DNA from: Octopus vulgaris
Lineage: Eukaryota
Direction of reading: 5' to 3'
Length of the DNA stretch: 64,000 nt
Assembly (NCBI GenBank): GCA_951406725.2
Contig: OX597820.1
Coordinates: forward strand, 56,420,001-56,484,000
Below are positions 874-58,654 of the stretch, piece after piece. The stretch's first letter is position 1. Each line of letters starts with the position of its first letter. The position numbers were made by a program, and so were the translations under genes. The notes below the pieces were generated by a model. The model ran no database searches and was not told the DNA's origin. It saw only the letters and a program-made list of their open reading frames with translations.

Positions 874-975
874 AAAACTGCCACTGCTGTTGCTCATTGT
901 AAACGTGGTCGCGGTTTAATCAAAGTCAATGGTCGTCCATTGGAGAATCTAGAGCCACAGATTTTACGCTATAAG
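874..975 (+). CDS. RPS16: 40S ribosomal protein S16 (uS9), internal coding exon; first exon lies upstream of the window
   Basis: ttcag acceptor and gtaag donor; translates [34 protein letters not shown], the conserved RPS16 N-terminal block. Confidence 0.97.
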
Positions 976-1720
976 GTAAGAATTTCCAAATATGTATATT
1001 TCATTAACATATGACTGTTTAGTACGAACTTTGCTTCCCAATACATGGTTCTGGGTTCAGTTTCACTGTGTGGCACCTAAAGCAAATACCTTCTATATCC
1101 CTAGACCAGCACAAGCCTTGTGAGCAGATTTGGTAGAAGGAAACTCCTTGTCTTGTTATTGTCTCTGTCATACAAGTAGTATAATGTATTTCCAATATTT
1201 TGAGAGAACATGTCTGGTCTTGGGGAAATCTATCACCTTGCTTGGAAACTGGTGAGGGTTAGCAACAGGGAAGGTATCCAACCATAGAAAATCTGCCTCA
1301 AAATCTGCAAGCATGGAAAAGTGGATGTTAAATTGATGATTATATATAACCATTTCCATTTAATCATGGAATTGTCATATCTTCATCACTGGAAACAATT
1401 TGTTTATGCTTGAGTTTTCTTGCCATTTTGTAGTTTTGTTAATATCTCTAGAACAGTGATTTTACTTCAACCATTGACAGTTGCTGCTAATTAGAAAATT
1501 CATTGGTTGAACTATATTGGAATAGCTTGTCTAAACTACTCTACTAGATTAATGAACTTCCTTTATATAATTGTCTGATTTAGTTTTTCAAATAGCCTAT
1601 GACATGGCAAATCAAAAGAGCAGAAGCTTTCTATGGTATTTTATAAATTTACAGAAATGAATATTTTATCTTTAATATCCTATTTTAAATAAGCTGTAAA
1701 TGTAAATTTCTTTCTTCTAG

Positions 1721-1817
1721 CTACAAGAACCACTATTATTGCTCGGAAAAGACCGATTTTCTGCAGTTGATATTAGAGTAAAGGTGAAAGGTGGTGGTCA
1801 TGTTGCCCAGATTTATG
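1721..1817 (+). CDS. RPS16: RPS16 coding exon
   Basis: ttctag acceptor and gtgag donor; [32 protein letters not shown] + G (phase 1). Confidence 0.97.
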
Positions 1818-4442
1818 GTGAGTTCTTTTCACTTCATCTAATTTAACTTTATCTCAATTTCATATTTAATCAAGAGAGAGGTGCAGTATCTACCCATTAC
1901 AAGTTCTCCCAGCCGGTATAGATGGATATAGTCGTTGGTACTTCTGCTGCTTGATACTTGAATAAAAATGCAATTTTAGGAGATAGCTTTGTTTTGGGAG
2001 TAATTTGCAGGGATTGTTTGGGTGGGAGTGGTAGTTTTATAGTTTAGAAAAAAAAAAAAGCATATCTTTTTAAGCTAGTCTGATCTATGATGTGAGTGTA
2101 GCATGAATGCCAGCCCATGAACATGCAATACTCATATAGTTATTGACTTCATAGGAACAGGACTTGAATATGTCCTAGTCTTGTGGAGGTAATTTAGTGC
2201 CTTTGTTTTCTCAATTACATAGGTGTAAAGCAGTGCAGTGTATAGCCAAATGGTTAAGAGGTTAGCTGCACGACCACTTCATGGCATCTTAGGAATATGT
2301 AATTTTTTTTTTAAATAGCCCAAAATCAGCTTGTATCTTGTGACTGAAATTGGGTAGAGTGAAATTATACAGAAACCCATTAGCTGGATTGTACTTGTAA
2401 TTTAGGCAGGACAAGTCTTGTCACACAGTGTGTCCTGCTGATTCTTCCTGAAAAACTAAGTTATGGGTACCTGTTTTAGAAATGCTCAAGCACTTAGCAT
2501 TTGAGGAGGAGGCAATTCAGTTGATGGAAAAGCTGAATCTGCATTGAATGATGGAGATCCACCATCAAGTTATAAAATGTAGTATTGTTACAGTTTAAAA
2601 ATATTCATGTATGTGGTCTGGAGAACCAGTGGCTGCACCAGGCTCCAGTCTGATTTGGCATTGCTTTAAGGAAGGGCATCCAGCTGTAGTAACATTGCAA
2701 GATTAGATTGGAGCCTGGTGCAGCTGCTGTCTCTCCAGACCTCAGTCAAACCGTTCAACCCATGCCAGCATGATAAACGGACGTTAAATGATGATGACGA
2801 TGTATTTCATTCAGTAGAAGGATCAGGAGTCAACCATATTCTTTCAGATTCAGTTGCCCTGTATGGCACCGTGCACTGAAGTATCTACTATAATAATACT
2901 TTTGTGTTTTTCTCCGTCACATGTGAGTGAGACAGGAAGGGGTGATAGATGAATAAGGAAAGAAGGGGTGATGGCAAATTTGGTAGTGGGATGATGGGAG
3001 TTCTATAGTGAAAAAATCAGTGTTTCTACTTTGTCAGTATATGTGTAAATGTTTGTGTGTGTGCTATGGAAGTGAGATAGTGAACATTCAATGCTGAAAA
3101 GAAAAATCAAACAGCGTTTCAACTCTGAGTATATGTATGTGTACAAGGGAAGTATGTGAATGTTTGTATCTGAGTATTATGTACCTTATTTTATACCTTA
3201 TGTATAAAATACAATTAGCCATCATTTTGATGGCACGGGACCAGCTAATGTGTATATAATTCATCATTTAGTGACAATGCAATATTTTGCTGCTATTCTG
3301 TTGGCAGAATACTGCTAGCTGGACACTGATTATTGGCTGTTTTGTCAGTCCACTGGTTTGTTCTGAGAGGAAGTGTTTAACCTGTGACAGCAACTAAAAA
3401 TTCTCATGACTAAAGACTGCTGATTTCAAATGGAACATTACTTCCATCAAAGTTCTCAGTAGAGGAAAATGATTGGTGTGTCATGTACAAGGGCATGTCT
3501 TCAGAAGATATTTTTTTAGATTGTTCTTTACTAAGCCAATTCCTTTTGAGCAATAGGGTGGTATTTGGTAATCAGAAGATGGTTTTACTTAAGAATTTAC
3601 CTAGGGTGGGCCTCAGAAAGAAAGTTTCATGAAATAGGTGAACTGTGATTGTTCTGAAGGAAGACTTGCTGGGGTTAATCACTTGGATTGGAGCAGCTTT
3701 CACATCCTTTAACTGTACATAAGGTTGTAAGAGCATATATTCAGGAAGGTTTTATGTGTTGAGCCTAAAACTGGAACCAAATTTGTTTCTTAGAGAATCT
3801 TAGCTAATAGTAGATTATGTAACAGAGTTGGAAATTTTCTTAGCAAAGATTGCTTGTGTGGTGATGGTAACTTTCTGATGTCATGGGCAATGTTTAGGGG
3901 CTCTTGAAGAAGGATAGTATTGGTAAATTTAGCAGTCCTTCGTGTTTCAAAGATCAGCACATTTACTGCAAAAGGTAGTCATTTATCAAATTGGCAAAGT
4001 ACCAAATTAACTGCTTTGAAATATCAGTATCTCTATCTCAAAATATTGTACTGTAGGTTGATGTGGGTTATGATATATGATTAAGTAGTGATATTCAGGA
4101 ATAAAGACATATTCCAAATTTTGTTATAAATTGCAATTTTTGAACTACAAAAATATTGACTGTTTCAAAAACTTTTTTTTTGCATTTCCTGTCTATATCA
4201 TCATCATCATGGATATTTTGTACACATTTGCATTGGATACTATAGTTTCAAAAAAATTAAAATGCTTATTGCAATTGAATAGAAAAGAATGCTTTTTTCA
4301 GCGATCCCCATTTGGGAGCCTATGACACGAAAGAGTTTCATATCTGGATGAACATTATTTACTATTTTTACCCCAAATTTCTAAAATATTTGGATTTTTG
4401 TGCTATATATGTTGTTTGCATAATGAAGTACTTCATTTTCAG

Positions 4443-11025: not shown

Positions 11026-11432
11026 GCGAGCTTGGCAGAAACGTTAGCACACCGGGCGAAATGCGTAGCCGTATTTCGTCTGCCGTTACGTTCTAAGTTC
11101 AAATTCCGCCGAGGTCGACTTTGCCTTTCATCCTTTCGGGGTCGATAAATTAAGTACCAGTTACGCACTGAGTCGATATAATCGACTTAATCCGTTTGTC
11201 TGTCCTTGTTTGTCCTCTCTGTGTTTAGCCCCTTGTGCGTAGTAAAGAAATAGGTATTTCGTCTGCCGTTACGTTCTGAGTTCAAATAGTACCGCGGTCG
11301 ACTTTACCCTTAATCCTTTCGGGGTCGACAAATTACATACCAGTTACGCACTGAGGTCGATGTAATCGACTTAATCCCTTTGTCTTTGTTTGTCCCATCT
11401 ATGTTTAGCCCCTTGTGGGTAATAAAGAAATA
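11026..11432 (+). mobile_element. SINE family B (tRNA-like head + Meta/MESC-like core), dimeric, nested in a family A copy
   Basis: Core gcctttcatcctttcggggtcgataaa..agtaccag; two units joined at gaaata|ggtatttcg; flanked by an imperfect TSD agaa(a/g)ctgaa(g/a)gaag. Confidence 0.8.
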
Positions 11433-16439: not shown

Positions 16440-18075
16440 TGACTACCTGCCAAAACGACAGTAAGCATGCCTGATAGTGTTTCCACTTTTACCGTCAAAC
16501 ATTGCGCTTTAGCGATAGCCTCTGTCCTCAACAATATCTCAAGACATTATTTGTCTAGAAGGATACAATCCAGTTTATGGGAACATGCTACAGTATCACT
16601 ATCCCAAAGGAAGGGCAATACCAGCTATCGGTCTCATTCAAAGCTGTGGGATACAACTCTTAGGAATCCTCTTCTGTAATAAATTGAGTTTCTCTACTTC
16701 TTCACTGGATACTATCATTAGTTTCCTATTTCTTTACTGGCCACAAGGGGCTATACACAGAGGGGCCAAACAAGGACAGTCAAAGGGATTAAGTCGATTA
16801 TATCGACCCCAGTGCGTAACTGGTACTTATTTAATCGACCCCGAAAGGATGAAAAGCAAAGTCGACCTCGGCGGAATTTGAACTCGGAACGTAACGGCAT
16901 ACGAAATACCTATTTCTTTACTACCAACAAGGGGCTAAACACAGAGAGGACAAATTAGGACAGACAAACGGATTAAGTCGATTATATCGACCTCAGTGTG
17001 TAACTGGTACTTATTTAATCGATCTCGAAAGGATGAAAGACAAAGTCGACCTCGGCGAAATTTGAACTCAGAACGTAGCTGCAGACAAAATACCTATTTC
17101 TTTACTACCCACAAGGGGCTAAACACAGAGAGGACAAAGAAGAACGGACAAACGGATTAAGTCGATTATATCGATCCCAGTGCGTAACTGGTACTTATTT
17201 AATCGACCCCGAAAGGATGAAAGGCAAAGTCGACTTCGGCGGAGTTTGAACTCGGAACGTAACGGCATACGAAATACCTATTTCTTTACTACCCACAAGG
17301 GGCTAAACACAGAGAGGACAAATTAGGACAGACAAACGGATTAAGTCGATTATATCGACCTCAGTGTGTAACTGGTACTTATTTAATCGATCTCGAAAGG
17401 ACGAAAGGCAAAGTCGACCTCGGCGAAATTTGAACTCAGAACGTAGCTGCAGACAAAATACCTATTTCTTTACTACCCACAAGGGGCTAAACACAGAGAG
17501 GACAAAGAAGAACGGACAAACGGATTAAGTCGATTATATCGATCCCAGTGCGTAACTGGTACTTATTTAATCGCCCCCGAAAAGATGAAAGGCAAAGTCG
17601 ACCTCGGCGGAATTTGAACTCAGAACGTAACGGCATACGAAATACCGCTAAGCATTTCACCCGGCGTGCTAACGTTTCTGCCAGCTCACTGCCTTACTAT
17701 CATTAGTTTCCGTTTAGTTAGCTATGACAGTAGCTTGCTCCCGTGCGTCACCCATAGAGGTCCTCTATCTTTGAAGTTTGAAAAAATGTCTTTGTATTTG
17801 ACCATGGTACGTAAATCTTCTAGCAAAGAGCCCCGCATCATCTGCCTTTCATCTCTTGGATCATAAGCTATTTATCAAATTATATTATCGCAGGATTGCT
17901 GCTGAAGCTCTGTCACGTCTACATTCTGACAATTCTAGCATACTCTTCTCCAACGTTCATTTATGTTTCTTCACATTCTTCCATTGACGATCTGCTTTCT
18001 TTCACTTCTAATAACGCTCACTTCTATACACAATTCTTTATCCCTGATTAATCCATACCACTGATTAATCCATAC
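16440..18075 (-). mobile_element. Highly decayed non-LTR retrotransposon (possibly R4/Dong-like), split by the SINE array
   Basis: Scattered minus-strand peptides (YHGQ, WD...HKLDCILLDK) resembling the RT C-terminus and RLE region. Confidence 0.35.
16727..17694 (-). repeat. Tandem array of five ~184-bp SINE family B units with one head and a 17-bp TSD
   Basis: Units start near 16725, 16909, 17093, 17277, 17461; TSD tactatcattagtttcc at 16710-16726 and 17695-17711. Confidence 0.92.
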
Positions 18076-26147: not shown

Positions 26148-26553
26148 TTGTTTCTTTACTGCCCACAAGGGACTACACAGAGGGGACAAACAAGGACAGA
26201 CCACCGGATTAAGTCGATTATATCGACCCCAGTGCGTAACTGGCACTTATTTAATCGACCCCGAAAGGATGAAAGGCAAAGTCGACCTCGGCGGAATTTG
26301 AACTCAGAACGTAGCGGCAGACGAAATACCTATTTCTTTACTACCCACAAAGGGCTAAACACAGATAGGACAAACAAGGACAAACAAACGGATTAAGTCG
26401 ATTATATCGACCCCAGTGTGTAACTGGTACTTATTTAATCGACCCCAAAAGGATGAAAGGCAAAGTCGACCTCGGCGGAATTTGAACTCACAACGTAACG
26501 TCAGACGAAATACCACTAAGCATTTCGCGCTAACATTTCTGCCAGCTCACCGC
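26148..26553 (-). mobile_element. SINE family B dimer
   Basis: Two units joined at the same gaaatacctatttc junction (about 26323-26336). Confidence 0.85.
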
Positions 26554-31692: not shown

Positions 31693-32375
31693 TAGGGTGG
31701 AGTGAAAATAAAAAAAATTGTGGAAATTGAAACTGCCTGAGAACTAAAATGCTGCTAGATTTTATTATTAGAAAAATGCTAAATTTTCGCTGAGATCAAT
31801 CAAAGGCATTTCCTCCCTCAGGCCCCCTAAACTCCGGAATTGGGGGATTTTTGGAATTTTTATACAATAGCCGAGTTTGGGAGGGGGTGTTGAGGCAGTA
31901 AGTGCTCTTGACTGATCGAAGCTAAAATTTAGCATTTTTATAATAATAATATATAGCAAGATTTTAGGCCTCAGGCATTTTCAATTTTATATTTTCATTC
32001 CACGCTAATACACATGTATATGTTTGAGGGTATTTAGATTGTGTAATGTAGGGTGGAGTGAAAATAAAAATAAAATTATAAAAATTGAAGATGGCTGAGG
32101 CCTAAAATCTTGCTATATATTATTACTAGAAAAATGGTGAATTTTCGCTTCGATTCGTTAAGGACATTTACTCCATCAGCCCCCCCCCCCAAACTCCGCT
32201 ATTGTAAAAGGTTTACAAAAGTCCCTCATTTTCGGAGTTTAAGGGAATTGAGGGAGTAAATGCTTTTAAATGAACTCAGCGAAAATTTAGCATTTTTCTA
32301 GTGATTAAATATAACAACGTTTTGGTTCTCAGGTATTTTCAATTTCCACAATTTTTTAATTTTCACTCCGCCCCA
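31693..32375. mobile_element. hAT-like MITE dimer with 8-bp TSD, inserted in a SINE
   Basis: TIR tagggtggagtgaaaa / ttttcactccgcccca; TSD acggccat at 31685-31692 and 32376-32383; internal TIRs at 31992-32007 and 32049-32064. Confidence 0.85.
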
Positions 32376-32935
32376 ACGGCCATGCTGGTGCACCGCTATG
32401 AAGGGTTTAGTCGAGCAAATCGACCACAATTCCTACTTTTAAAGTTTGGTGCTTATTCTGTCGATCTCTTTTGCTGAAGTATTAAGTTACCGATACATAA
32501 ATAAAGCAACACCGGTTGCTAAGCGGTGGTGGACGAGAAAAACGACATGCACATACATACGAGGGGGCTTTGGTTAGAAGAAAATACAGGAGGATCAGTT
32601 AATTATGATTTTATTTAATATATTTCCCTCTCAGATACACATACTTATTGCAGCAGTCCTTTAGTTTTTCTAAGCCCTGTAAAAGAACTCGGAAGGTTGG
32701 GCTTCCAGCCAGGCCTTTCGTGGTTCCCTGAAAGCCAGGAACTTTTCAACAAATAATATATATATATAATTATAAATCATATATTATTTGATTCTCTGTC
32801 TGAAGAATTTCAAATAGGAAATTTCTTGCATGTTTATCCAACATCTATAATTTTGTGATTCCTATTAGCAAATAAAACACGTGTAATGGTGAATAAATAA
32901 CACCAAAACTTTTTTCAGATTCCTGTTTTGTTACA

Positions 32936-33002
<67 letters not shown>

Positions 33003-33081: not shown

Positions 33082-33603
33082 CACATATATATACATATCA
33101 TATATATATATGCATACATATACATATATATATATGCATATATATGTATACGAATATATACATATATACATATTTATACATATATATACATACATATATA
33201 TATATATATATGCATATATATGTATACGAATATATACATATATACATATTTAGTGAGGGTGCGTGGCTTAGTGGTTAGGGCATTCGGCTCATGATCGTAA
33301 GGTTGTGAGTTCGATTCCCGGCGACGCGTTGTGTCCTTGAGCAAGACACTTTATTTCACGTTGCTCCAGTCCACTCAGCTGGCAAAAATGAGTTGTACTT
33401 GTATTTTAAAGGGCCAGCCTTGTCACTCTCTGTGTCACGCTGATTATCCCCGAGAACTACGTTAAGGGTACACGTGTCTGTGGAATGCTCAGCCATTTGC
33501 ACGTTAATTTCATGAGCAAGCTGTTCCGTTGATCGTATCAGCTGGGACCCTCGTCGTCGTAACCGGCGGAGTCTTTTTTTTATACATATTTATACATATA
33601 TAT

Positions 33604-33835: not shown

Positions 33836-34131
33836 ACATATATTTATATATACATATATATATATGTATATATACAAAGGAAAGACAGAAGATGGAATAT
33901 AAGAGAATATATTATTAATCACAACAATCTTTTCAACACATCTAGCATCGACTCCTTTTGTGGGACACTCAACAACTGGTTCAGGAGCATCCGGTGATGC
34001 AGACGTATCTCATCAGGTGATGAATAAATAAAAAAAACTCGTTAAAATGACTGTCCCACAATGCAACTTACTGTTATGTGGAGAGAAAAACAGGTAGATG
34101 GAGGAAAATTCTCCATATATATAGATAAAAA

Positions 34132-38255: not shown

Positions 38256-38487
38256 TTTATTACTGAAACTGCAAAAACATCACAAATATATCACAAAAAA
38301 ACTACTACTCAGTTGAGATTCTTAATTACAACTGTCCGACGAATGGAAACGTGAAACTCTGAGTAGCAGTTTTTTGTGATATGTTTGTAATGTTTTTGCA
38401 GCATTAATAGTAAATCATATTACTCTACTTACGGTATTCCAGTACTACTTTTTCCCGCATTGTTTCACATTTATGTGCTTACTCTAG

Positions 38488-43027: not shown

Positions 43028-43300
43028 ATAGTTAATCCAAACATGAACAAAGAGAAAACACAACAACGCGAAGACGTGGAACAAGTATAGTGTTATTGGA
43101 CGTTCAGGAAAGGAAAGAAAGAAGGAGGATTTAACGTTTCGAGCGGAGCTCTTTGTCAGAAACATAGAAAAAGGAAAGGTCCAATGAAGGGAAGACGGAG
43201 AAAGAAAATCGCCAACGATACTCACGCGGTCACATATTGAAGTGTATATATATATACATACATACACACACACACACACACATACACACATACACACACA

Positions 43301-43696: not shown

Positions 43697-45852
43697 ACTC
43701 AGCCAGAACTATATTTGTCTGTCTAATTTGCATGGCTCTGCAGGCGCTGAACCCAAGAATTAATGAATTAATTAGAAGTGCACAAAACAGTATCTTGTGA
43801 GGAACATTGAAATTTTTTGACAAATCTTTAATAAGTAGAATTTGATCTCATTGTGAAAAGTGATCGAAGTGGTTACAGTTATAGATTTATTTCACCGTGA
43901 GTAAGAAAAAAAATGGAATGGTCGACTGGTTTCTGGTTTTGTTAATGCTTATTCAGGAAAGTCTACTAATATATTCTGTTCACAAAAAGAATAGTGGCTC
44001 ACAGTTATTTAAAATATATACAAACTTGGGGAAAACTAAATTGGTCTGTCTAATTACATTACAGTGCATTCACTGAATTTTTCACTGACGATGGCTTACC
44101 AAAACCAGAAACTAAATCGATCGATTTATTTTTCTGCTAATGCCACTCCGTCGGTTACGACGACGAGGGTTCCAGTTGATCTGATCAACGGAACAGTCTG
44201 CTCGTGAAATTAACGTGCAAGTGCCTGAGCACTCTACAGACACACGTAGCCTTAACGTTGTGCTCAGGGAAATTCAGCGTGACAGAGATTGTGACAAGGC
44301 TGACCCTTTGAAATGCTGGTACTACACATTTTTGCCAGCTTAGTGGACTGGAGCAAGGTGAAATAAAGAGTCTTGCTCATGAATACAACGCGTCGCCTGG
44401 AACTGATTTCACGACCTTACGTTCGTAAACCGAATGGCCCTAATCACTAAGCCACGCGCCTTCACTTCTGCTAATTGAGATAAACATATAGTGTAGCCAC
44501 TTTGTTTCCCTTTCACAGCGTGGCTAAATCAAATGCCTACTAAAGGCTTACGTTTCATTTAAAATGATATAGACACCAAAAAAGATTCACAAAGAAGTAT
44601 ATCCAAACACATTAAATATCCGAAGATGACATTGTTATGGCACTGTGGCAAGATAGTAGCATGATAGTCATAACCAAATCAACTCTACCTTACCGACAGA
44701 GATAGGTGGTTATCATCATTCTCATCATACGGATACAGCAAACAACCCAAACAGTTTATCCTGTGAAAGTAGTTGACCAATGGTTTGACTGAAGAAATTT
44801 CTAGGCTGCTCACAAAGGAATATTACTTTTACAATATCCAGGAGCGATTAGAAAGACTGCAGGTTATAAAACCTGACTAGCGACTAAGTTCAAATAAATA
44901 TCTGAATAAACTCTACTCCACGTATTGGCTTAGTGGTTAGAGTGTTGGACTCATCATCGTAAGATTGTGGGTTCGATTCCTGGACCGGGCGATGCATTGT
45001 GTTCTTGAGTGAAACATTTCATTTTACGTCGCTCCAGTCCACTTACCTGGCAAAAATGGGTAATCTTGCGACGGACCCGTCCAGGGAGGAATATATACGT
45101 CAGAAAAACCGTGAAACCGGCCCTGTGCTCCTTACGGAGTCATGTGGATTAACCCCACGCATTAAGGAATGGTACGAACGAGATTCGGTTGTTTATTTAT
45201 TGATGGTCAATTAACCAAATAACGGCTCTGTCATTAACTCCTGTAGGAAATGCTGTCTCATAAAGCTATGGAGTGGATCAAAAGTGGGTGAAAGGAAAAG
45301 AAGAAACAAAGTCATAGCCAGGATAGAACTCAAGTGTCTGCAGTTGATGGAGGGCATTGTGAGAAAAAGAAAGAAAAAAAAAGAGAAGCAAGTAAGCTAC
45401 AGAGGTAGAAGAAACTCGCTGCCTGATGTTACGTTGGAGTTAAGCAGATATCAATAACCCATATACACGCACACTTGAAATGGCCTAAAGTAATATTAAA
45501 AACCACAAATGAAATAAACTACTACACAAAAAGCCATAATAAAAAAATAAAATAACTAAAAGAACATGAGACCAACCAATAAGAGGTATGAAAAAAATAA
45601 ACACACTCACACCGATGAGTATCAGGTCTCGCTTGATGAACGCTGTGGCATGAAACTAGAGTTGCGAGAAAGGAACTCAATTTAAGTAAAACATATTCTC
45701 TGAATCATGTATTGAGTACTGCTTTCTTTATCTGTCGATGAACAATAAATTTCGAAAAATTCTCATACACGGACACACGTGTATTAAAAAGAAAATGAAT
45801 CTATGGACGTATGCACACACACAGACACAGACACAGACACACGTACACACAC

Positions 45853-45933
<81 letters not shown>

Positions 45934-47670
45934 TACGTGTGTGTATGTGCGAATACAAAAATTCAATTTAAAAGAAATTGTGTGTATATGTGTGTGTCAG
46001 AAACTTATCACTTGTTCTTCGGCCTTTAGTGCAATTCTGCTGTTGTTAAGCAAACCCCAGAATGCAGAACAAAAACAGAAAAAAAAAAATAGGGTAAATA
46101 GGAAGTGATCTTTAAAATCTCTGGACGAAGTAGTTCAGAATATATCTTTAACTTTCATCATAGTTTACGATATCTATTTATTTATTTATTATGGTAAAAA
46201 GCCTTGAGGAAATCTCGCTGTTTAACCACATTATCCCAGGACGTTAATGCTTTTCCTATTTGGTATCAGAATATAGCTTTGTAGTGGTGGTAGTAGGGAA
46301 AATAAACGAGACAGTAAGACGCCAGACCAAATTTATTGTAAAATATTTTCTGCTATCTCATTTGCTTCTGATTTGAAGTGTCAGCGGTGTCAAATTTTCC
46401 CTTTTACTAAGAAAATAGAATTAGTTAATTCGTTTGATCTATTGTGTGTTAGGTAAACTTTTTTTTCGTTCGCTTAACGTCTAATCTACGCTGCTGGATG
46501 GTTAAGCCCGGATTTCGATATAGATTCATACAGTCTGACTGAGGGTGTGCATGTAGTCATGACTAAGCAAAATATACATGCTAGAAATAACAGCCAAATA
46601 TTACTCAAACCTCAACCTACTCTCTTAGGCAGTAGGTAAAAACAAAAACAAATACAATATAAATTTGATATCAATAATCAAATACATACTGTTCATTTTG
46701 CATACGTATGCATATATAGGTTTATGAATGTACAAATATATGCCTCTGCATTTGGTCATTTTTCCGATTTATGTGGATGTATGAGTGTGTATGTATATGT
46801 GTGTGCGCGTGCCTGTCCATATGTATGGAAAGGGATCTTTGCACCAATCTATTGTTTAATATATTGCGACGTATTTCTGGAAAAAGTAAAAGAAGTTGAG
46901 ACGATTGTGACTTAAATTGTGCTCTTTATAGCTCACAGCGATCATGGCTTATTTGCGGATAAGCAAGAACAACAGGATCCACAGGTCTAGCAACGAAATA
47001 CGAAACCATAACTGCTAATCCTGTATTTTATAATGAACTGAAATGTGAATTTACCTATAATCATAACATTGTAGCAAAATCCTTGGTGTTTTTTTTTTAT
47101 GGAATTTTTTTCTGTAGAAAGAAAACTTCATCCTATATTAGTAGTAGACTTATTACTACTCGCTATAGGGACTGGTAACCACTATAACATGTAGTGGAGA
47201 ACAGTCAACACGTTGTGCTGAGGCTGACCAAAGAATTTTATTTTTAGATATATCTGGGGTACTTATATGTGCTCATGATTTTTGCTTCGGCTTTTTCCAT
47301 GGGCGCATGTAAGTATCTTATTTATATCCTTTCGTATGTTCTACTGAGGAGGAAAGAATCTTTTATGAGATCAATTCCGAAATTGATTCAATATAGAAAT
47401 AACGAACTTTTAAAAAAAATTCTAACGGCCGGCTTGCCCGATTACAGTTCTTCGAGTTTTTTTTTCTGTAGCGGGTAAATAATGTGTGGAAATTGACGAT
47501 GTAATAGTCTATTATCAGCATATTGGCATTGAAATAATTTTCTTTAGTCCTCACGTATAAGTTGTTTATAATTTTAACCGTAAAGGTATTTTAATATGCT
47601 GCCACATTTTTTGATGGAATTTTTTTCTGTAGAAAGAAAACTTCATCCTATATTAGTAGTAGTAGTAGTA

Positions 47671-49404: not shown

Positions 49405-50366
49405 CAATTTAAATAATTTGGGAAAAACGAATTTCCAAATCAATCAGGGATCAATCAGGTACAACCCTTTAGCATTACATACTTCTGCATATTATACAGT
49501 GGGGTCTTGATTATCATGTATTTATATATTTATCTAGAAATATACAAAATATATAATAGAAATCAATAATAATTCTGTTTTGGGGATTAATAGATATGCG
49601 GGTAATACTGAACCCCGCCCCTTAAATCTAATAATCAGACACTTTTGATTTCTACAATACTTGAAAAATTATATAAATCTTAAATAAATAAATTAATAAA
49701 TTAAATATTACTAAAAATTATATTATAACAAATTATATATATCCCCAACATAGTTAGATGGAAGATAATAATAGAAGATAATTTAAATTAACTCTGCATA
49801 GTAGAATTACTCCTCTTTGCACTAATCATCTATAAATTCCCATATTGCTCTGCTATCTTCCCTTTCTCTAATCGCCATTTTGAAAGTCATCTTGGTTCCA
49901 TCAAAAGAGGATGTGTATCTGCATTTTTTATGTTATTTTTCACATTTAATTACAGACATTTTTATTCTGATGTATATTTTATAACTTATAATTTGTATTT
50001 GACATTATGTACTTGACTTTGTAAGTTTGATATATGTATACTAATTCATATTTATAATGCATAATTTATAATTTTTAATTCTTAATGTTATAAAGTATAA
50101 TTTTAAATTTTTAATGTTTGATTTGATGTGTAGTTAAACGCTTAATTTTAAGGTGATGTAAAATTAGATTAACAATATTTTGAAAAAGAACCTGATGTGT
50201 TTGTAGAATTGTAAATCTGATGATTACACACACACACACACACACACACGAACCTGTGTCCATTATAACCTTTGAACAGGGGAGGTCAGCCGCTGTATTC
50301 CACTGATTTTAGGTAAATAATCCTTCGAACAGACGGTCAGTAGCGAAGCCTGCTGGGTTCGGCTAC

Positions 50367-50409
50367 TCTACATTGATAAGGGCCAAATACACTGAAACTA
50401 GTCTGTAGA
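50367..50409 (+). ncRNA. Minimal hammerhead-like motif (U3-A8 core variant)
   Basis: tctaca TTGATAA ... GAAAC-TA-GTC tgtaga; palindromic actagt stem III; stem II weak. Confidence 0.55.
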
Positions 50410-50666
50410 TGCCGGACCAGCAAAGGAAAGCCGCTGACACAGGTGACAATGGACACAGGTTCGTGTGTCACATAGCTAGCTAGAGGCGATGGCCCCTTGG
50501 AGCTAATCAACGGCAGCATTCGTCCTATTTTTCTAGACTGCCACGTTAGCTTGGCGATAACTATTAATATCCAGTACCGCTGCCGTAGTCCTTTAGAGAG
50601 ACTTAGAAATAATAATATATATATACATATATATATATATATGTATATGTGTGTGTGTGTGTGTGC

Positions 50667-50726
<60 letters not shown>

Positions 50727-51078
50727 GTATATATATACAAGGATATCCAGAGGTAATGCAGTACGATCGTTTCATGCGACTCCAGTTACAACTATGATGT
50801 TATTGATGAAACATGTTCTTTGTCTAGCTATTTATCCTCTTTGTGATTTTGGTTAATAGAATAGCTATACAAATGAATCCTTTGAATTTAACTAAATTCT
50901 ATATTTTTATGCAGCTGAAGATTGCTCTACATTTTAAAACTGATGTAATATTTGCATTGTTCAATTAAATGAAACGATCATATTGCATTACCTCTGGATA
51001 TATTTGTTGCTTATTTTGATTGTAATCACTCCATTTTGAATTATGAGTTATTGAAGTATGAGTTATTCTGCAGATTGA

Positions 51079-52454
51079 CTGCAGAATAACTCATACTTCC
51101 CTTATCATAAACCTTCTACTAATCTTAAGTATATCAGCATTTTCAGTAATCATGCCAAGCCAATTACCGATAATTTAGTTAAAAACATTTCTCTGAGACT
51201 GTCAAAATTATCTGCTAATGTCGACATCTTTAACCAAAAAGCGGAATTCTATTAGACCGCCTTCTCAAGAGCCGGTTATAAGGAAAAAGTATCATACATC
51301 GACCCAGCTCATTCTAACCCAACATATGCTTCTCAAGATAAGAAAACCACTCGTAATAAAAATAATGATTTCAATTCTAATAGTGCCAGCACCCCTGTAC
51401 ATAAGGTAAATCCTTTACGGACTAGGGGAGGTAAGCGCCACCCAACTTCAAATTTCCAACACAGAAATTTTCCCCTTACTGTCACAAATAACACTAGGAA
51501 CAATTCAAAGTCTACAAAAAACTGTATCTGGTTTGTAATACCTTTCGGAAAACAAATCAAATCGAACCTTCCCTTACAGTTCCGTGAAGCCATTGCTAGG
51601 AACTTTCCCAGTAATTCTAGATATCATTCTATTATCAATTCACACAAGGTAAGAATAGCATTCTCTAACACTAAGAATCTTTCGCAAATTATTGCTTCCC
51701 ATAATAACAAGCTGCTAAACAAAGATTCTTCACCCGGGGGTTCCAACACTAATCTTACTAATTCCAACCCATCATACAATCATAATAATAGAAATAGTAT
51801 TGATAGTAACAGCATTCGTAGCAGCGTTAGTGTTAGCAATGATAATATTAATAATAGTATTAGTCGGGTTGATAACAACGGGAATGTTGATGGTAACAAC
51901 AACAACGGTACTATTGTCGGGGATATAGCTGGTTGTAGTGCAATTAATAATAATAATAATAATAGAAATAGTGTAGTTGTTAACGCTAGTAGTAATAAAA
52001 ACAACAATCATAACAATAAAAACTCCGTTTCGATCTCGGAGGAGAACCCTAACAGATTAAAATTTTTGTCCAGTAATTCCAAAATTAAGAATTCCATTTC
52101 CAAGTGTAGAATTTCTTCCGGTGCCGATGTCTTCTACTATATAGGTGCGACAACTTCTCAGTTATCCAAGAGAATTTCTAATCATTATTCGACTTTCCGA
52201 GATAAGAAAAACGACATAGTACAGGACTGAGTAAATTAGTTTGGCGTCTTAAAGACAACAATATAACTTTCAAGTTGGATTGGTTTATATTGTCTGTATC
52301 CTTTCCTTTTGATAAGGGCAGAAAATTTTGTTACATTTGTAATTCTGAACTCTTCTATATCCTTTTCGCCAAGGTTCCCCTAGTAAACACACTCATAGAA
52401 AAATCGTACAAATATAAGCATTGGCAAAAACACACTTACCACTCATATAAATAA
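51079..52454 (+). mobile_element. Penelope-like element, 5'-truncated ORF: RT thumb/linker + GIY-YIG endonuclease
   Basis: FPYHKPSTNLKYISIFSNHA...LRLSKLS...CIWFVIPF...IIASHNNKLL...YYIGATT...KRISNHYSTFR...LSKLVWRLKD...CYICNSE; stop at 51253-51255 and a frameshift near 52210. Confidence 0.9.
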
Positions 52455-52970
52455 TATAGATAACCACTTTAGTTTTAACAATTAGCTTCACGTCCACACC
52501 ACTACCATAGACAAATTCTTTCCTATGCCTTCGAACTTTCTGCTCCGTTATATGTTCCATTGCTACTAAATTTCTTTGACGTATGTTTATATATATCTCT
52601 CTCTCCCTCTCTATAACACGCACGATCAAACACACAGACACAAATTTTACACCTTACTACTAAGTATATTTGACGTTTGTCTCCCTCACACACACAATAA
52701 CACATACACACACACAGACACAAATGCAGTTATATACACACACTCATACACATACACAAACACTCGCACTCATTAACACAAGCACACACCCGCATATCCC
52801 CATACATACAGCATACATATTGTCTCCTACCTATTTTTACTACTCCCTCCTTCTACCCATTTTTGACGTCATTGCTTATAACGGATTATTTTAGAAAAAC
52901 ACTCATTATCACTGTGGTCACCATGTAGGCAATCATCAAAAATTTTGTTCGTCTTGTGGCTGAAAGAGGC

Positions 52971-53067
52971 TCCTTATCTTTCCTGATGAGAAGATGGCAT
53001 AATGCACCATTTATTCCTTCGGAATTAAAAGTATGCCGTCTTCGAAACATGTGTCGAGAGTAAAGGA
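52971..53067 (+). ncRNA. Type I hammerhead ribozyme in the Penelope 3' terminal region
   Basis: Stem I ctttc/gagag (extendable tcctt/aagga), CTGATGA at 52983-52989, 12-bp stem II gaagatggcata/tatgccgtcttc, GAAAC-atgt-GTC; predicted cut after 53055. Confidence 0.85.
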
Positions 53068-53254
53068 ATTTTGTTAAAATCTTCGTTCGACTCCATTCTT
53101 TCATTTATTCATATAAATAACACACAAATTTCCACACAAGAACCCGGAGTTTCTACCCTTGACAGGTCGCTTCAACCGTGTTTTCTGACGTGAATTTGCT
53201 ACCCAGGTATCGGTTAAACGAATTTTCCATGCTAGGATAATTCATTCACCTACT

Positions 53255-53389
<135 letters not shown>

Positions 53390-53723: not shown

Positions 53724-53928
53724 CAGGGTGGCTCAAAAGTAGGTTTACAGTTATTCTCTTTCGCATTCTTATATTAACAGTTTAGATCTTAATTATTAAA
53801 AAATATGAAACCATTGTTCTATGCTAATTTAGTTAATTGTAAGATAGAAATTTAAATGTAATAAAATATTTTAAAAGAAATTTAAAGTGCCTACGTGATA
53901 CCTGTAAACCTACTTTTGGGCCGCCATG
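53724..53928. mobile_element. Tc1/mariner-type MITE
   Basis: TIR cagggtggctcaaaagtaggtttacag / ctgtaaacctacttttgggccgccatg. Confidence 0.75.
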
Positions 53929-53993
53929 ATAGATCGTTAGCTCCTACACGCATTTTTTCTCTCCTTGTTTCTAACCTTGTTTTTTTCTGTGTA

Positions 53994-54031
53994 TCTTTCT
54001 GTCGAAGAGCGTAGGCTCGAAACGTAAAAGA
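53994..54031 (+). ncRNA. Minimal hammerhead-like motif with CUGUCGA core (second copy 58494-58531)
   Basis: tcttt CTGTCGA a gagc-gtag-gctc GAAAC GTA aaaga. Confidence 0.55.
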
Positions 54032-54140
54032 CTTGTTTTATTTCTATTCCTGAGCGCCATACTAATACAATTGTTTGTTTGTACTCCACCTGCCTTCGTC
54101 TTTTGTTTATTTTCGTAAACCTTCCCGTTATATATATATA

Positions 54141-55393: not shown

Positions 55394-55928
55394 TATCTAC
55401 CTGCCTATCTATCGATTTATCTGTCTGCTTCTCTCCCTCTCTCTATCTGTCTATTTATCGAACCGTTTATTTTGCCTTTCTCTCTGTCTGTCTTGTATAG
55501 CTATCTGCTTATATATCGAACTGTCCGTTTCTCTGTTTGTATCTATCTGTTTGTATCTCTGTTTGTCTGTTTGTATCTATCAGGCGCCTGACTTCTTGGT
55601 TAGGGCATTCGGCTCCCGATCGTAACGTCGTGAGTTCCATTCCCAGCTTCGCGCTGTGTCTTTAACCAAGACACTTTATTTCGCCTTGTCCAGTCCACAC
55701 AGCTGGCAAAAATATGCTACTCCTGCATTTCCAAGGACCAGCTTTGTCACATACTAGGTCATGTCGAATCTCCCTGAGATCGACGTTAGCGGTACACATG
55801 TCTGTGGAGTGCTCAACCACTTGCACGTTAATTTCCCGAGCAAGCTGTTCTGTTGACTGAATCAGCTGGAACACTCGTCGTCGTAATCGACAGTGCCAGT
55901 TGCCTGTCTCTCTCTCCTTATCTCTCTC

Positions 55929-58475: not shown

Positions 58476-58616
58476 CTTCATATGTATGTAAATCCTTTCT
58501 GTCGGAGAGCGTAGGCTCGAAACATAAAAGACTTTTTCATTTTTCCCGAGCGTTAAACAAATACACCTGCTTCTTCTTCCAACACATGTCTTCGCCTTTT
58601 GATTTCTGCAAATTTG

Positions 58617-58654
<38 letters not shown>

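Follow-up and report, generated by a model that had tools for sequence, protein, structure and literature searches.

The hammerhead motif at positions 52971-53067 (+ strand) of this 64,000-nt stretch of Octopus vulgaris DNA, which we call the window, very probably belongs to a Penelope-like element (PLE) that has lost its 5' part, and lies in that element's 3' terminal repeat. On the same reading, the set of hammerheads around it consists mostly of clipped 3' ends of autonomous PLEs, together with two ORF-less units that were likely handled by the same machinery. These are real ribozyme-type motifs of a known kind; the parts worth testing are an A6U change that is fixed in the core of one family and the retrozyme-like units that carry PLE marks.

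The anchor hammerhead and the element that carries it

The motif at 52971-53067 (family A, the anchor) has the core and stem geometry of a type I hammerhead. Its core boxes lie at 52983-52989 and 53044-53047, with every conserved core base in place and an NUH cleavage site present, as expected from the sequence-only reading, which had called the core canonical and intact. That reading also described a 12-bp stem II with a 30-nt loop, and the coordinates agree (52990-53001 paired with 53032-53043). Stem I has 5 bp (52978-52982 with 53056-53060), and five outer pairs join 52971-52975 to 53063-53067. With A15.1 at 53047 and U16.1 at 53054, the predicted cut falls after C17 at 53055. The one feature that had been misread is stem III: the proposed 6-nt palindrome is two bases out of register, and the helix that is needed is the 8-nt self-complementary stretch 53047-53054, which forms 2 bp in the monomer and 8 bp, including two G-U pairs, in the dimer. 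Several relatives carry a perfect palindrome at this position. The centroid fold of the anchor contains stems I and II, and the stability of the fold alone is unremarkable (z -1.82; 11 of 200 shuffles are equally stable). We conclude that the anchor is a well-formed type I hammerhead that is predicted to self-cleave as a dimer.

The hammerhead had been placed downstream of a Penelope ORF and does indeed sit in the 3' UTR of a 5'-truncated, Hydra-like PLE copy (51053..53257, + strand) that ends on (TA)n. This copy begins with a short inverted 5' piece (51053-51073), followed from 51079 by a broken ORF that reads in order through the RT thumb region, an Asn/Ser-rich linker, and GIY-YIG; the ORF is damaged by an in-frame stop near 51253 and a frame break near 52228. 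A Pfam search with the window ORF alone gave zero matches. Family A has 3443 candidates, 40 of which were scored (91-100%). Across 30 loci, a constant 3' end at a microsatellite goes with variable 5' ends, and six of these loci have an inverted copy directly upstream. In one locus, L260, there is an upstream 674-aa frame containing RT and GIY-YIG. The family A frame has 55 RT relatives at E<=1e-10, its GIY-YIG Pfam match has an E value of 0.005, below the curated cut-off, and the only named relative of the ORF is an Argonauta protein. A single ORF with a PLE-type RT plus a GIY-YIG at the C terminus points to an EN+ Penelope-like element, and the further traits of such elements are found as well: 5' truncation, inverted 5' copies, and a hammerhead near the 3' end.

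The clade assignment of family A, like that of families G and H below, is based on motifs. Hydra-clade motifs as defined in PMC8557442 are seen in seven aligned relatives of A. The CxCX5C linker is present in 7/7 of these relatives and absent from the family A protein, P0001, and because this linker is missing we call A Hydra-like rather than a member of Hydra. P0001 also lacks CCHH and the terminal CxH, and it has CxxC. The RWK and DKT motifs are present or near-present in the relatives; the longest A copy read begins after them. Nematis was considered for A, G, and H and set aside, as the published Hydra definition fits better.

Two observations on family A stand apart from this assignment. 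An Asn/Ser-rich low-complexity tract (window 51700-52060; L260:1503-3524) replaces the Cys-rich linker of the relatives; A copies still end on (TA)n without that linker, an observation relevant to the proposal that microsatellite targeting is driven by the linker. In addition, a group of A copies (L011, L013, L017, L020, L023, L024, L026, L027, and L030, on C2, C30, and C31) share one 5' end, corresponding to window position 52548, and a deletion after the hammerhead is common to part of them. This pattern looks less like independent insertion than like segmental or satellite duplication.

Truncated PLE ends and ORF-less units in the window

Families B and C are minimal hammerheads on the 5'-truncated 3' ends of two putative Neptune-type PLEs. 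The family B copy (53922..54129, + strand) has its core at 53999-54005, with A6U, and a predicted cut after 54026; a diverged second copy (58494..58619, + strand; 78% to 53995-54108) has alterations in A9 and stem III. In the family C copy (43030..43245, - strand; core 43159-43153), G8 is altered, though the descriptor passed it. The B and C window copies are ~200 nt long and end on (TA)n. Elsewhere in the genome, the 5' ends of both families form ladders (in B, from -29 to beyond -1499 nt), and coding sequence appears upstream: RVT_1 in L257 (above the Pfam cut-off) and GIY-YIG in L255 (below the curated cut-off) for B, and RT and GIY-YIG frames at 1.8 kb in L252 for C. Read by eye, both families have an RT, a CX4CX2C linker, and a GIY-YIG domain, with the CCHH-type motif read for B only. 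By these motifs, B and C appear to be Neptune-type PLEs, with Nematis as the alternative clade. The random-sample copies of B and C, whose alignment ends are rough, did not support a start of copies at the cut site.

To judge abundance in this 2.80-Gb genome, we used a random sample of 100 evenly spaced 10-kb stretches from 27 contigs (1 Mb), in which B and C each occur at 13-17 copies per Mb. B is the most abundant family, with ~40,000 copies genome-wide. Its position 6 is U in 13/13 random-sample copies and in 101 of the 103 matches in all loci, where position 7 takes all four letters. In B contigs from four runs of four organisms, neither position 6 nor G8 has any other letter at 2% or more, and N7 and N17 vary in the same contigs (summed depth). 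Changes of A6 are reported to give low hammerhead activity (PMC3088659). We found no A6U hammerhead in the literature and alignment text searched, though the dimeric PLE variants of Lunse et al, covered by the review PMC6765202, could include one. B is a natural experiment on the role of PLE hammerheads, with tens of thousands of copies carrying a core change expected to cripple cleavage, and family C, with its normal core, gives a comparison. The core of C is normal or U4C (15 random pattern matches, one of them spurious), and the U4C core is common in C, D, and H. U4C also recurs in unrelated hammerhead families of the sample.

Family H likewise is a 5'-truncated PLE end, and G appears to be one. 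The G copy (50743..51030, + strand), from a Hydra-like PLE with a 1.8-kb 3' UTR, has an inverted 5' piece (50743-50775), a core at 50915-50921, and a 10-nt deletion in stem II. The ladder of 5' ends in G reaches -1.8 kb, and its far end matches, at 77%, a single relative in which endonuclease C-terminal motifs can be read; tblastn gave no ORF within 1.5 kb upstream, and G is counted as a PLE end through that relative. The H copy (33880..34110, - strand; core 34016-34010) has a long stem II and a broken stem III. In L318 and L326 (2/20 loci), a Hydra-type endonuclease lies 300-400 nt upstream of H, with the CxCX5C linker in L326 and the C-terminal CxH in L318, so that H has both the linker and the CxH that characterize Hydra.

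The remaining single hammerheads are less well connected. Family D (38256..38480, + strand; core 38336-38342) combines a U4C core with a Hydra-type stem III; the window copy has an inverted 5' piece (38256-38312), and inversions occur in 10/20 loci of this family. Family I (32782..32937, + strand; core 32800-32806) has a long stem II and, in the window copy, an altered G12 (32874). Relatives of G, H, and I have complete hammerheads with palindromic stem III, whereas the window copies are broken. Family E (45623..45723, + strand; core 45633-45639) is a degenerate hammerhead relic with 5 genome candidates only. A search for upstream ORFs gave 1/45 matches for D (an ORF that is probably unrelated), 0/29 for I, and 0/5 for E.

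Taken together, copies of A, B, C, and H have a fixed 3' end fused to (TA)n and ragged 5' ends, and the longest of them reach RT or GIY-YIG. The ragged ends and the upstream coding sequence argue that these families, and less directly G, are truncated ends of autonomous PLEs. The short inserts therefore appear to be 5'-truncated PLE 3' ends and not units of their own.

In contrast, copies of families F and J run upstream into their own tails alone in the loci read. The F copy in the window (50244..50620, + strand) has an inverted 5' piece (50244-50290), a U3-A8 core at 50373-50379, a predicted cut after 50403, and two of four stem II pairs broken. In 20 F loci, the only shared upstream sequence is the family's own tail, found in 9/20 (3 of them duplicates of L298). 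In one locus from the random sample, L138, two units that are 99.6% identical stand in tandem with a period of 362 nt; this dimer contains two complete hammerheads and is preceded by an inverted piece, and it is the sole full dimer among the F loci read. L236 is a 99% copy of L138 on a different contig (C6 and C29), and this young subfamily therefore offers testable elements. The F unit is 362 nt long, with 41% G+C and a type I hammerhead. Its U3-A8 pair is invariant in 22/22 distinct hammerheads. Across these 22 sequences, pairing holds in 92.9% of cells and both sides have changed in 15, a degree of covariation that 0/500 shuffles reach (the shuffle ignores relatedness); at the centre of stem III the pair may be U-A, G-C, or A-U, giving three perfect palindromes. 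When the F tail-head junction was used as a query, it was spanned by all 40 scored matches, which is expected from the ranking and shows wide spread.

The family J copy (47092..47662, + strand) is an ORF-less unit of 515 nt (47148-47662) that follows a 56-nt stretch of its own tail (47092-47147); it has a canonical core at 47344-47350 and a predicted cut after 47393. Of 40 J loci selected by their hammerhead, at least 18 also contain the tail-head junction (matched by hand), and no full dimer is present among the 4 loci read. Folded as circles, two F units have z scores of -6.2 and -4.8 and J has -6.3; the damaged F copy in the window has -2.1, and four PLE ends range from -0.1 to -1.4. The loci read were the best-scoring 20-60 per family, out of ~950-3400 candidates, and an occasional F or J copy that does have an ORF upstream could have escaped this reading. 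We take F and J to be ORF-less, head-to-tail, retrozyme-like units that were likely copied from circular RNA; their more-than-unit copies imply a circular or a tandem template, two possibilities that DNA cannot separate.

The window contains other repeats. A 184-nt unit, presumably an abundant SINE, forms arrays at 16725-17646 (5 copies) and 26151-26514 (2 copies) and is dispersed at 11172, 20197, 48830, and 55169. Inverted arms of 277 nt, 83% complementary and 92 nt apart, form a MITE-like structure at 31712-32357. A probable SINE of 295 nt, whose head is tRNA-like, has opposite-strand copies at 33278-33572 and 44145-44439, and there is a similar copy near 55590-55890.

Mechanism, alternatives and abundance

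In the mechanism we favor, a PLE protein would nick AT-rich DNA, as inferred from published PLE work, and reverse transcription would begin at an internal site of the RNA that lies 60-270 nt downstream of the hammerhead. Synthesis would usually stop early or flip, leaving a short hammerhead stub with or without an inverted piece. A PLE protein that nicks AT-rich DNA and starts reverse transcription inside uncut RNA has been described, together with a hammerhead that is protein-assisted and dispensable for insertion in vitro (PMC11167929). Because the copies span both sides of the cut site, the RNA that was copied should have been uncut or re-joined; priming on uncut RNA explains how stubs keep both sides. 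The starting point for F and J would be a pLTR unit with an internal deletion. Its transcript would be cut by hammerheads acting as dimers and closed into a circle, or else a tandem master would be read through, and the template would then be copied past one unit length.

The same anatomy would also fit another mechanism, in which PLE ends retain the hammerhead fold because it acts as a structural or protein-binding signal, with cleavage being weak or of no consequence. We regard this as somewhat unlikely, and the evidence cuts both ways. In an anole PLE, hammerhead mutants had no effect on insertion in vitro and zero RNA ends mapped to the cut site, yet the ribozyme cleaves when the protein is present (PMC11167929). 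Family B has reached its high copy number with a fixed A6U, as a fold retained for its shape might, but its N7 and N17 vary while G8 and the remaining core are constant. The frequency of U4C in C, D, and H and the retention of both sides of the cut site also agree with a role as a signal, whereas F has kept U3-A8 in every distinct hammerhead while swapping its three stem III palindromes.

It is improbable that most of the motifs are non-autonomous, retrozyme-like elements amplifying as short units of their own. Most B and C copies are indeed ~200 nt, and their 5' ends most often fall 65-100 nt upstream of stem II, but these modal ends partly reflect query length, and in A, B, C, and H the longest copies extend into coding sequence. 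Most I copies begin within ~25 nt of the core. F and J fit exactly such units; the family's own tail is found upstream in 9/20 F loci, compared with 0/30 for A, 3/60 for B, 2/56 for C, and 0/20 for D, G, H, and I. Truncation of autonomous PLEs accounts better for the larger part of the set. The sequence-only reading, which proposed a set of non-autonomous, retrozyme-like elements, was therefore right about one of its positions, 50367 (F), and the idea extends to 47344 (J), both ORF-less and head-to-tail. It does not hold for 52983, 53994/58494, 43128, 33919, or, less directly, 50915, which run upstream into PLE coding sequence; 38332, 32800, and 45627 were traced to neither class.

That reading had listed ten hammerhead positions. 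All of them fall in dispersed families with a hammerhead consensus (45627 weakly), but only 4/10 pass our relaxed descriptor (38336, 43159, 52983, and 53999). The six that fail (32800, 33919, 50915, 50367, 58494, and 45627) are damaged or variant copies of hammerhead-bearing families, and the list missed a fifth window match, 47344. Block shuffles of the window (12) gave a mean of 0.4 motifs, compared with these 5. The claim of an unusual density did not survive: there are 5 copies where 3.2 are expected (P 0.22, with a library built from the sample only), and the window is therefore typical of the genome. Among the matches listed (150 of 250), an Rfam scan of the window returned microRNA models on microsatellites and was uninformative on hammerheads.

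The large and diverse population that had been proposed is borne out genome-wide. By homology, there are at least 69 hammerhead-spanning copies per Mb, or ~190,000 per genome as a lower bound. The suggested count against shuffled controls gave a frequency above random, with 51 descriptor matches in the 1-Mb sample compared with 11, 10, and 13 in three shuffles. Perfect cores number 17 (0, 2, and 0 when shuffled) and palindromic stem III 38 (4, 1, and 3). Enrichment next to (TA)n, another suggested check, was also found: of 69 sample copies, 63 had enough flank, and (TA)4 or more lies within 200 nt downstream in 43/63 and upstream in 28/63, compared with 19.8% of random points. The fold-backs noticed beside the motifs are present, and we read them as 5' inversions typical of PLE insertion. 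An origin of the motifs by chance in AT-rich repeat DNA is refuted for all but the weak family E, since the excess of perfect cores and palindromes and the family-level conservation and covariation outweigh the modest z score of the anchor fold and the ~11 descriptor matches per Mb in shuffles. Several further hammerhead families that are absent from the window occur in the sample (L091-L190), among them L110/L132/L137, L112/L148/L184, L154, L156, and L172.

A broader interpretation, which we offer tentatively, is that the genome holds ~200,000 hammerheads; that the A6U of B, kept in four organisms and through several subfamily radiations as tolerant positions drift, marks either a new working core or a fold selected beyond cutting; and that F and J are recently active circular-RNA retrozymes with PLE insertion signatures. 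If true, F and J would link retrozymes directly to PLE machinery in a cephalopod-like host.

Comparison with known PLEs and retrozymes

There is nothing unusual about the anchor itself: hammerheads of PLEs are established, and one has already been listed for an octopus Hydra element. Hydra elements with a (TA)n preference and hammerheads include Hydra-1_Obim of Octopus bimaculoides (Craig et al, 2021, PMC8557442), and the family A hammerhead differs from the one listed there. Like the Hydra-clade PLEs described in that paper, A has a C-terminal GIY-YIG without CCHH, (TA)n insertion, a canonical 3' hammerhead, and a long self-complementary stem III; unlike them, it has an Asn/Ser-rich tract instead of CxCX5C and a longer stem II. 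Family D resembles the Hydra hammerheads tabulated in the supplement (PMC8557442). B and C are like Neptune-clade PLEs, by motifs only, in their RT, CX4CX2C linker, GIY-YIG (with the CCHH-type motif read in B), and microsatellite junctions.

Massive numbers of heterogeneous, mostly single hammerheads, with opposite-strand pairs and ties to truncated PLEs, have been described before (Cervera and De la Pena, 2014, PMC4209133). The minimal hammerheads in that study share with B and C an additional base following A9, G10.1-C11.1, and a palindromic stem III of two pairs, and the U3-A8 variant of F is known there from Schistosoma. In contrast, the fixed A6U of B is absent from its searchable alignment text. 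The count here, at least 190,000 copies, compares with thousands per genome in that study, with different search methods.

The main text of a 2026 octopus repeat annotation does not mention ribozymes or retrozymes in a term search (PMC13282606), and no paper on retrozymes in cephalopods or hammerheads in octopus was evident in the titles and abstract starts of an open-access literature search. Non-LTR retrozymes have been defined as ORF-less units of 150-450 bp with G+C under 50% and a type I hammerhead (Cervera and De la Pena, 2020, PMC7229834), and units of 51-972 bp have been tied to PLE termini (Li et al, 2026, 10.64898/2026.07.22.740005). Families A, B, C, G, and H differ from such ORF-less, head-to-tail units in having coding sequence upstream and their own tail in at most 3/60 loci. 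F and J resemble non-LTR retrozymes in their ORF-less units, type I hammerhead, head-to-tail order, and predicted self-paired fold. Judged from DNA alone, F would qualify by unit size, G+C, hammerhead, and tandem dimer; J, at 515 nt, is above the range in PMC7229834 and within that in 10.64898/2026.07.22.740005. Unlike known non-LTR retrozymes, F and J do not form long arrays but occur mostly as dispersed 1-2-mers that show PLE-style inversions and (TA)n junctions. The hammerheads of both are of the PLE type: stem III is long and palindromic, and F has U3-A8. Retrozymes have been proposed to be derivatives of PLEs (PMC7229834; 10.64898/2026.07.22.740005), and F and J, in which retrozyme anatomy is joined to PLE insertion marks, support this origin for animal retrozymes.
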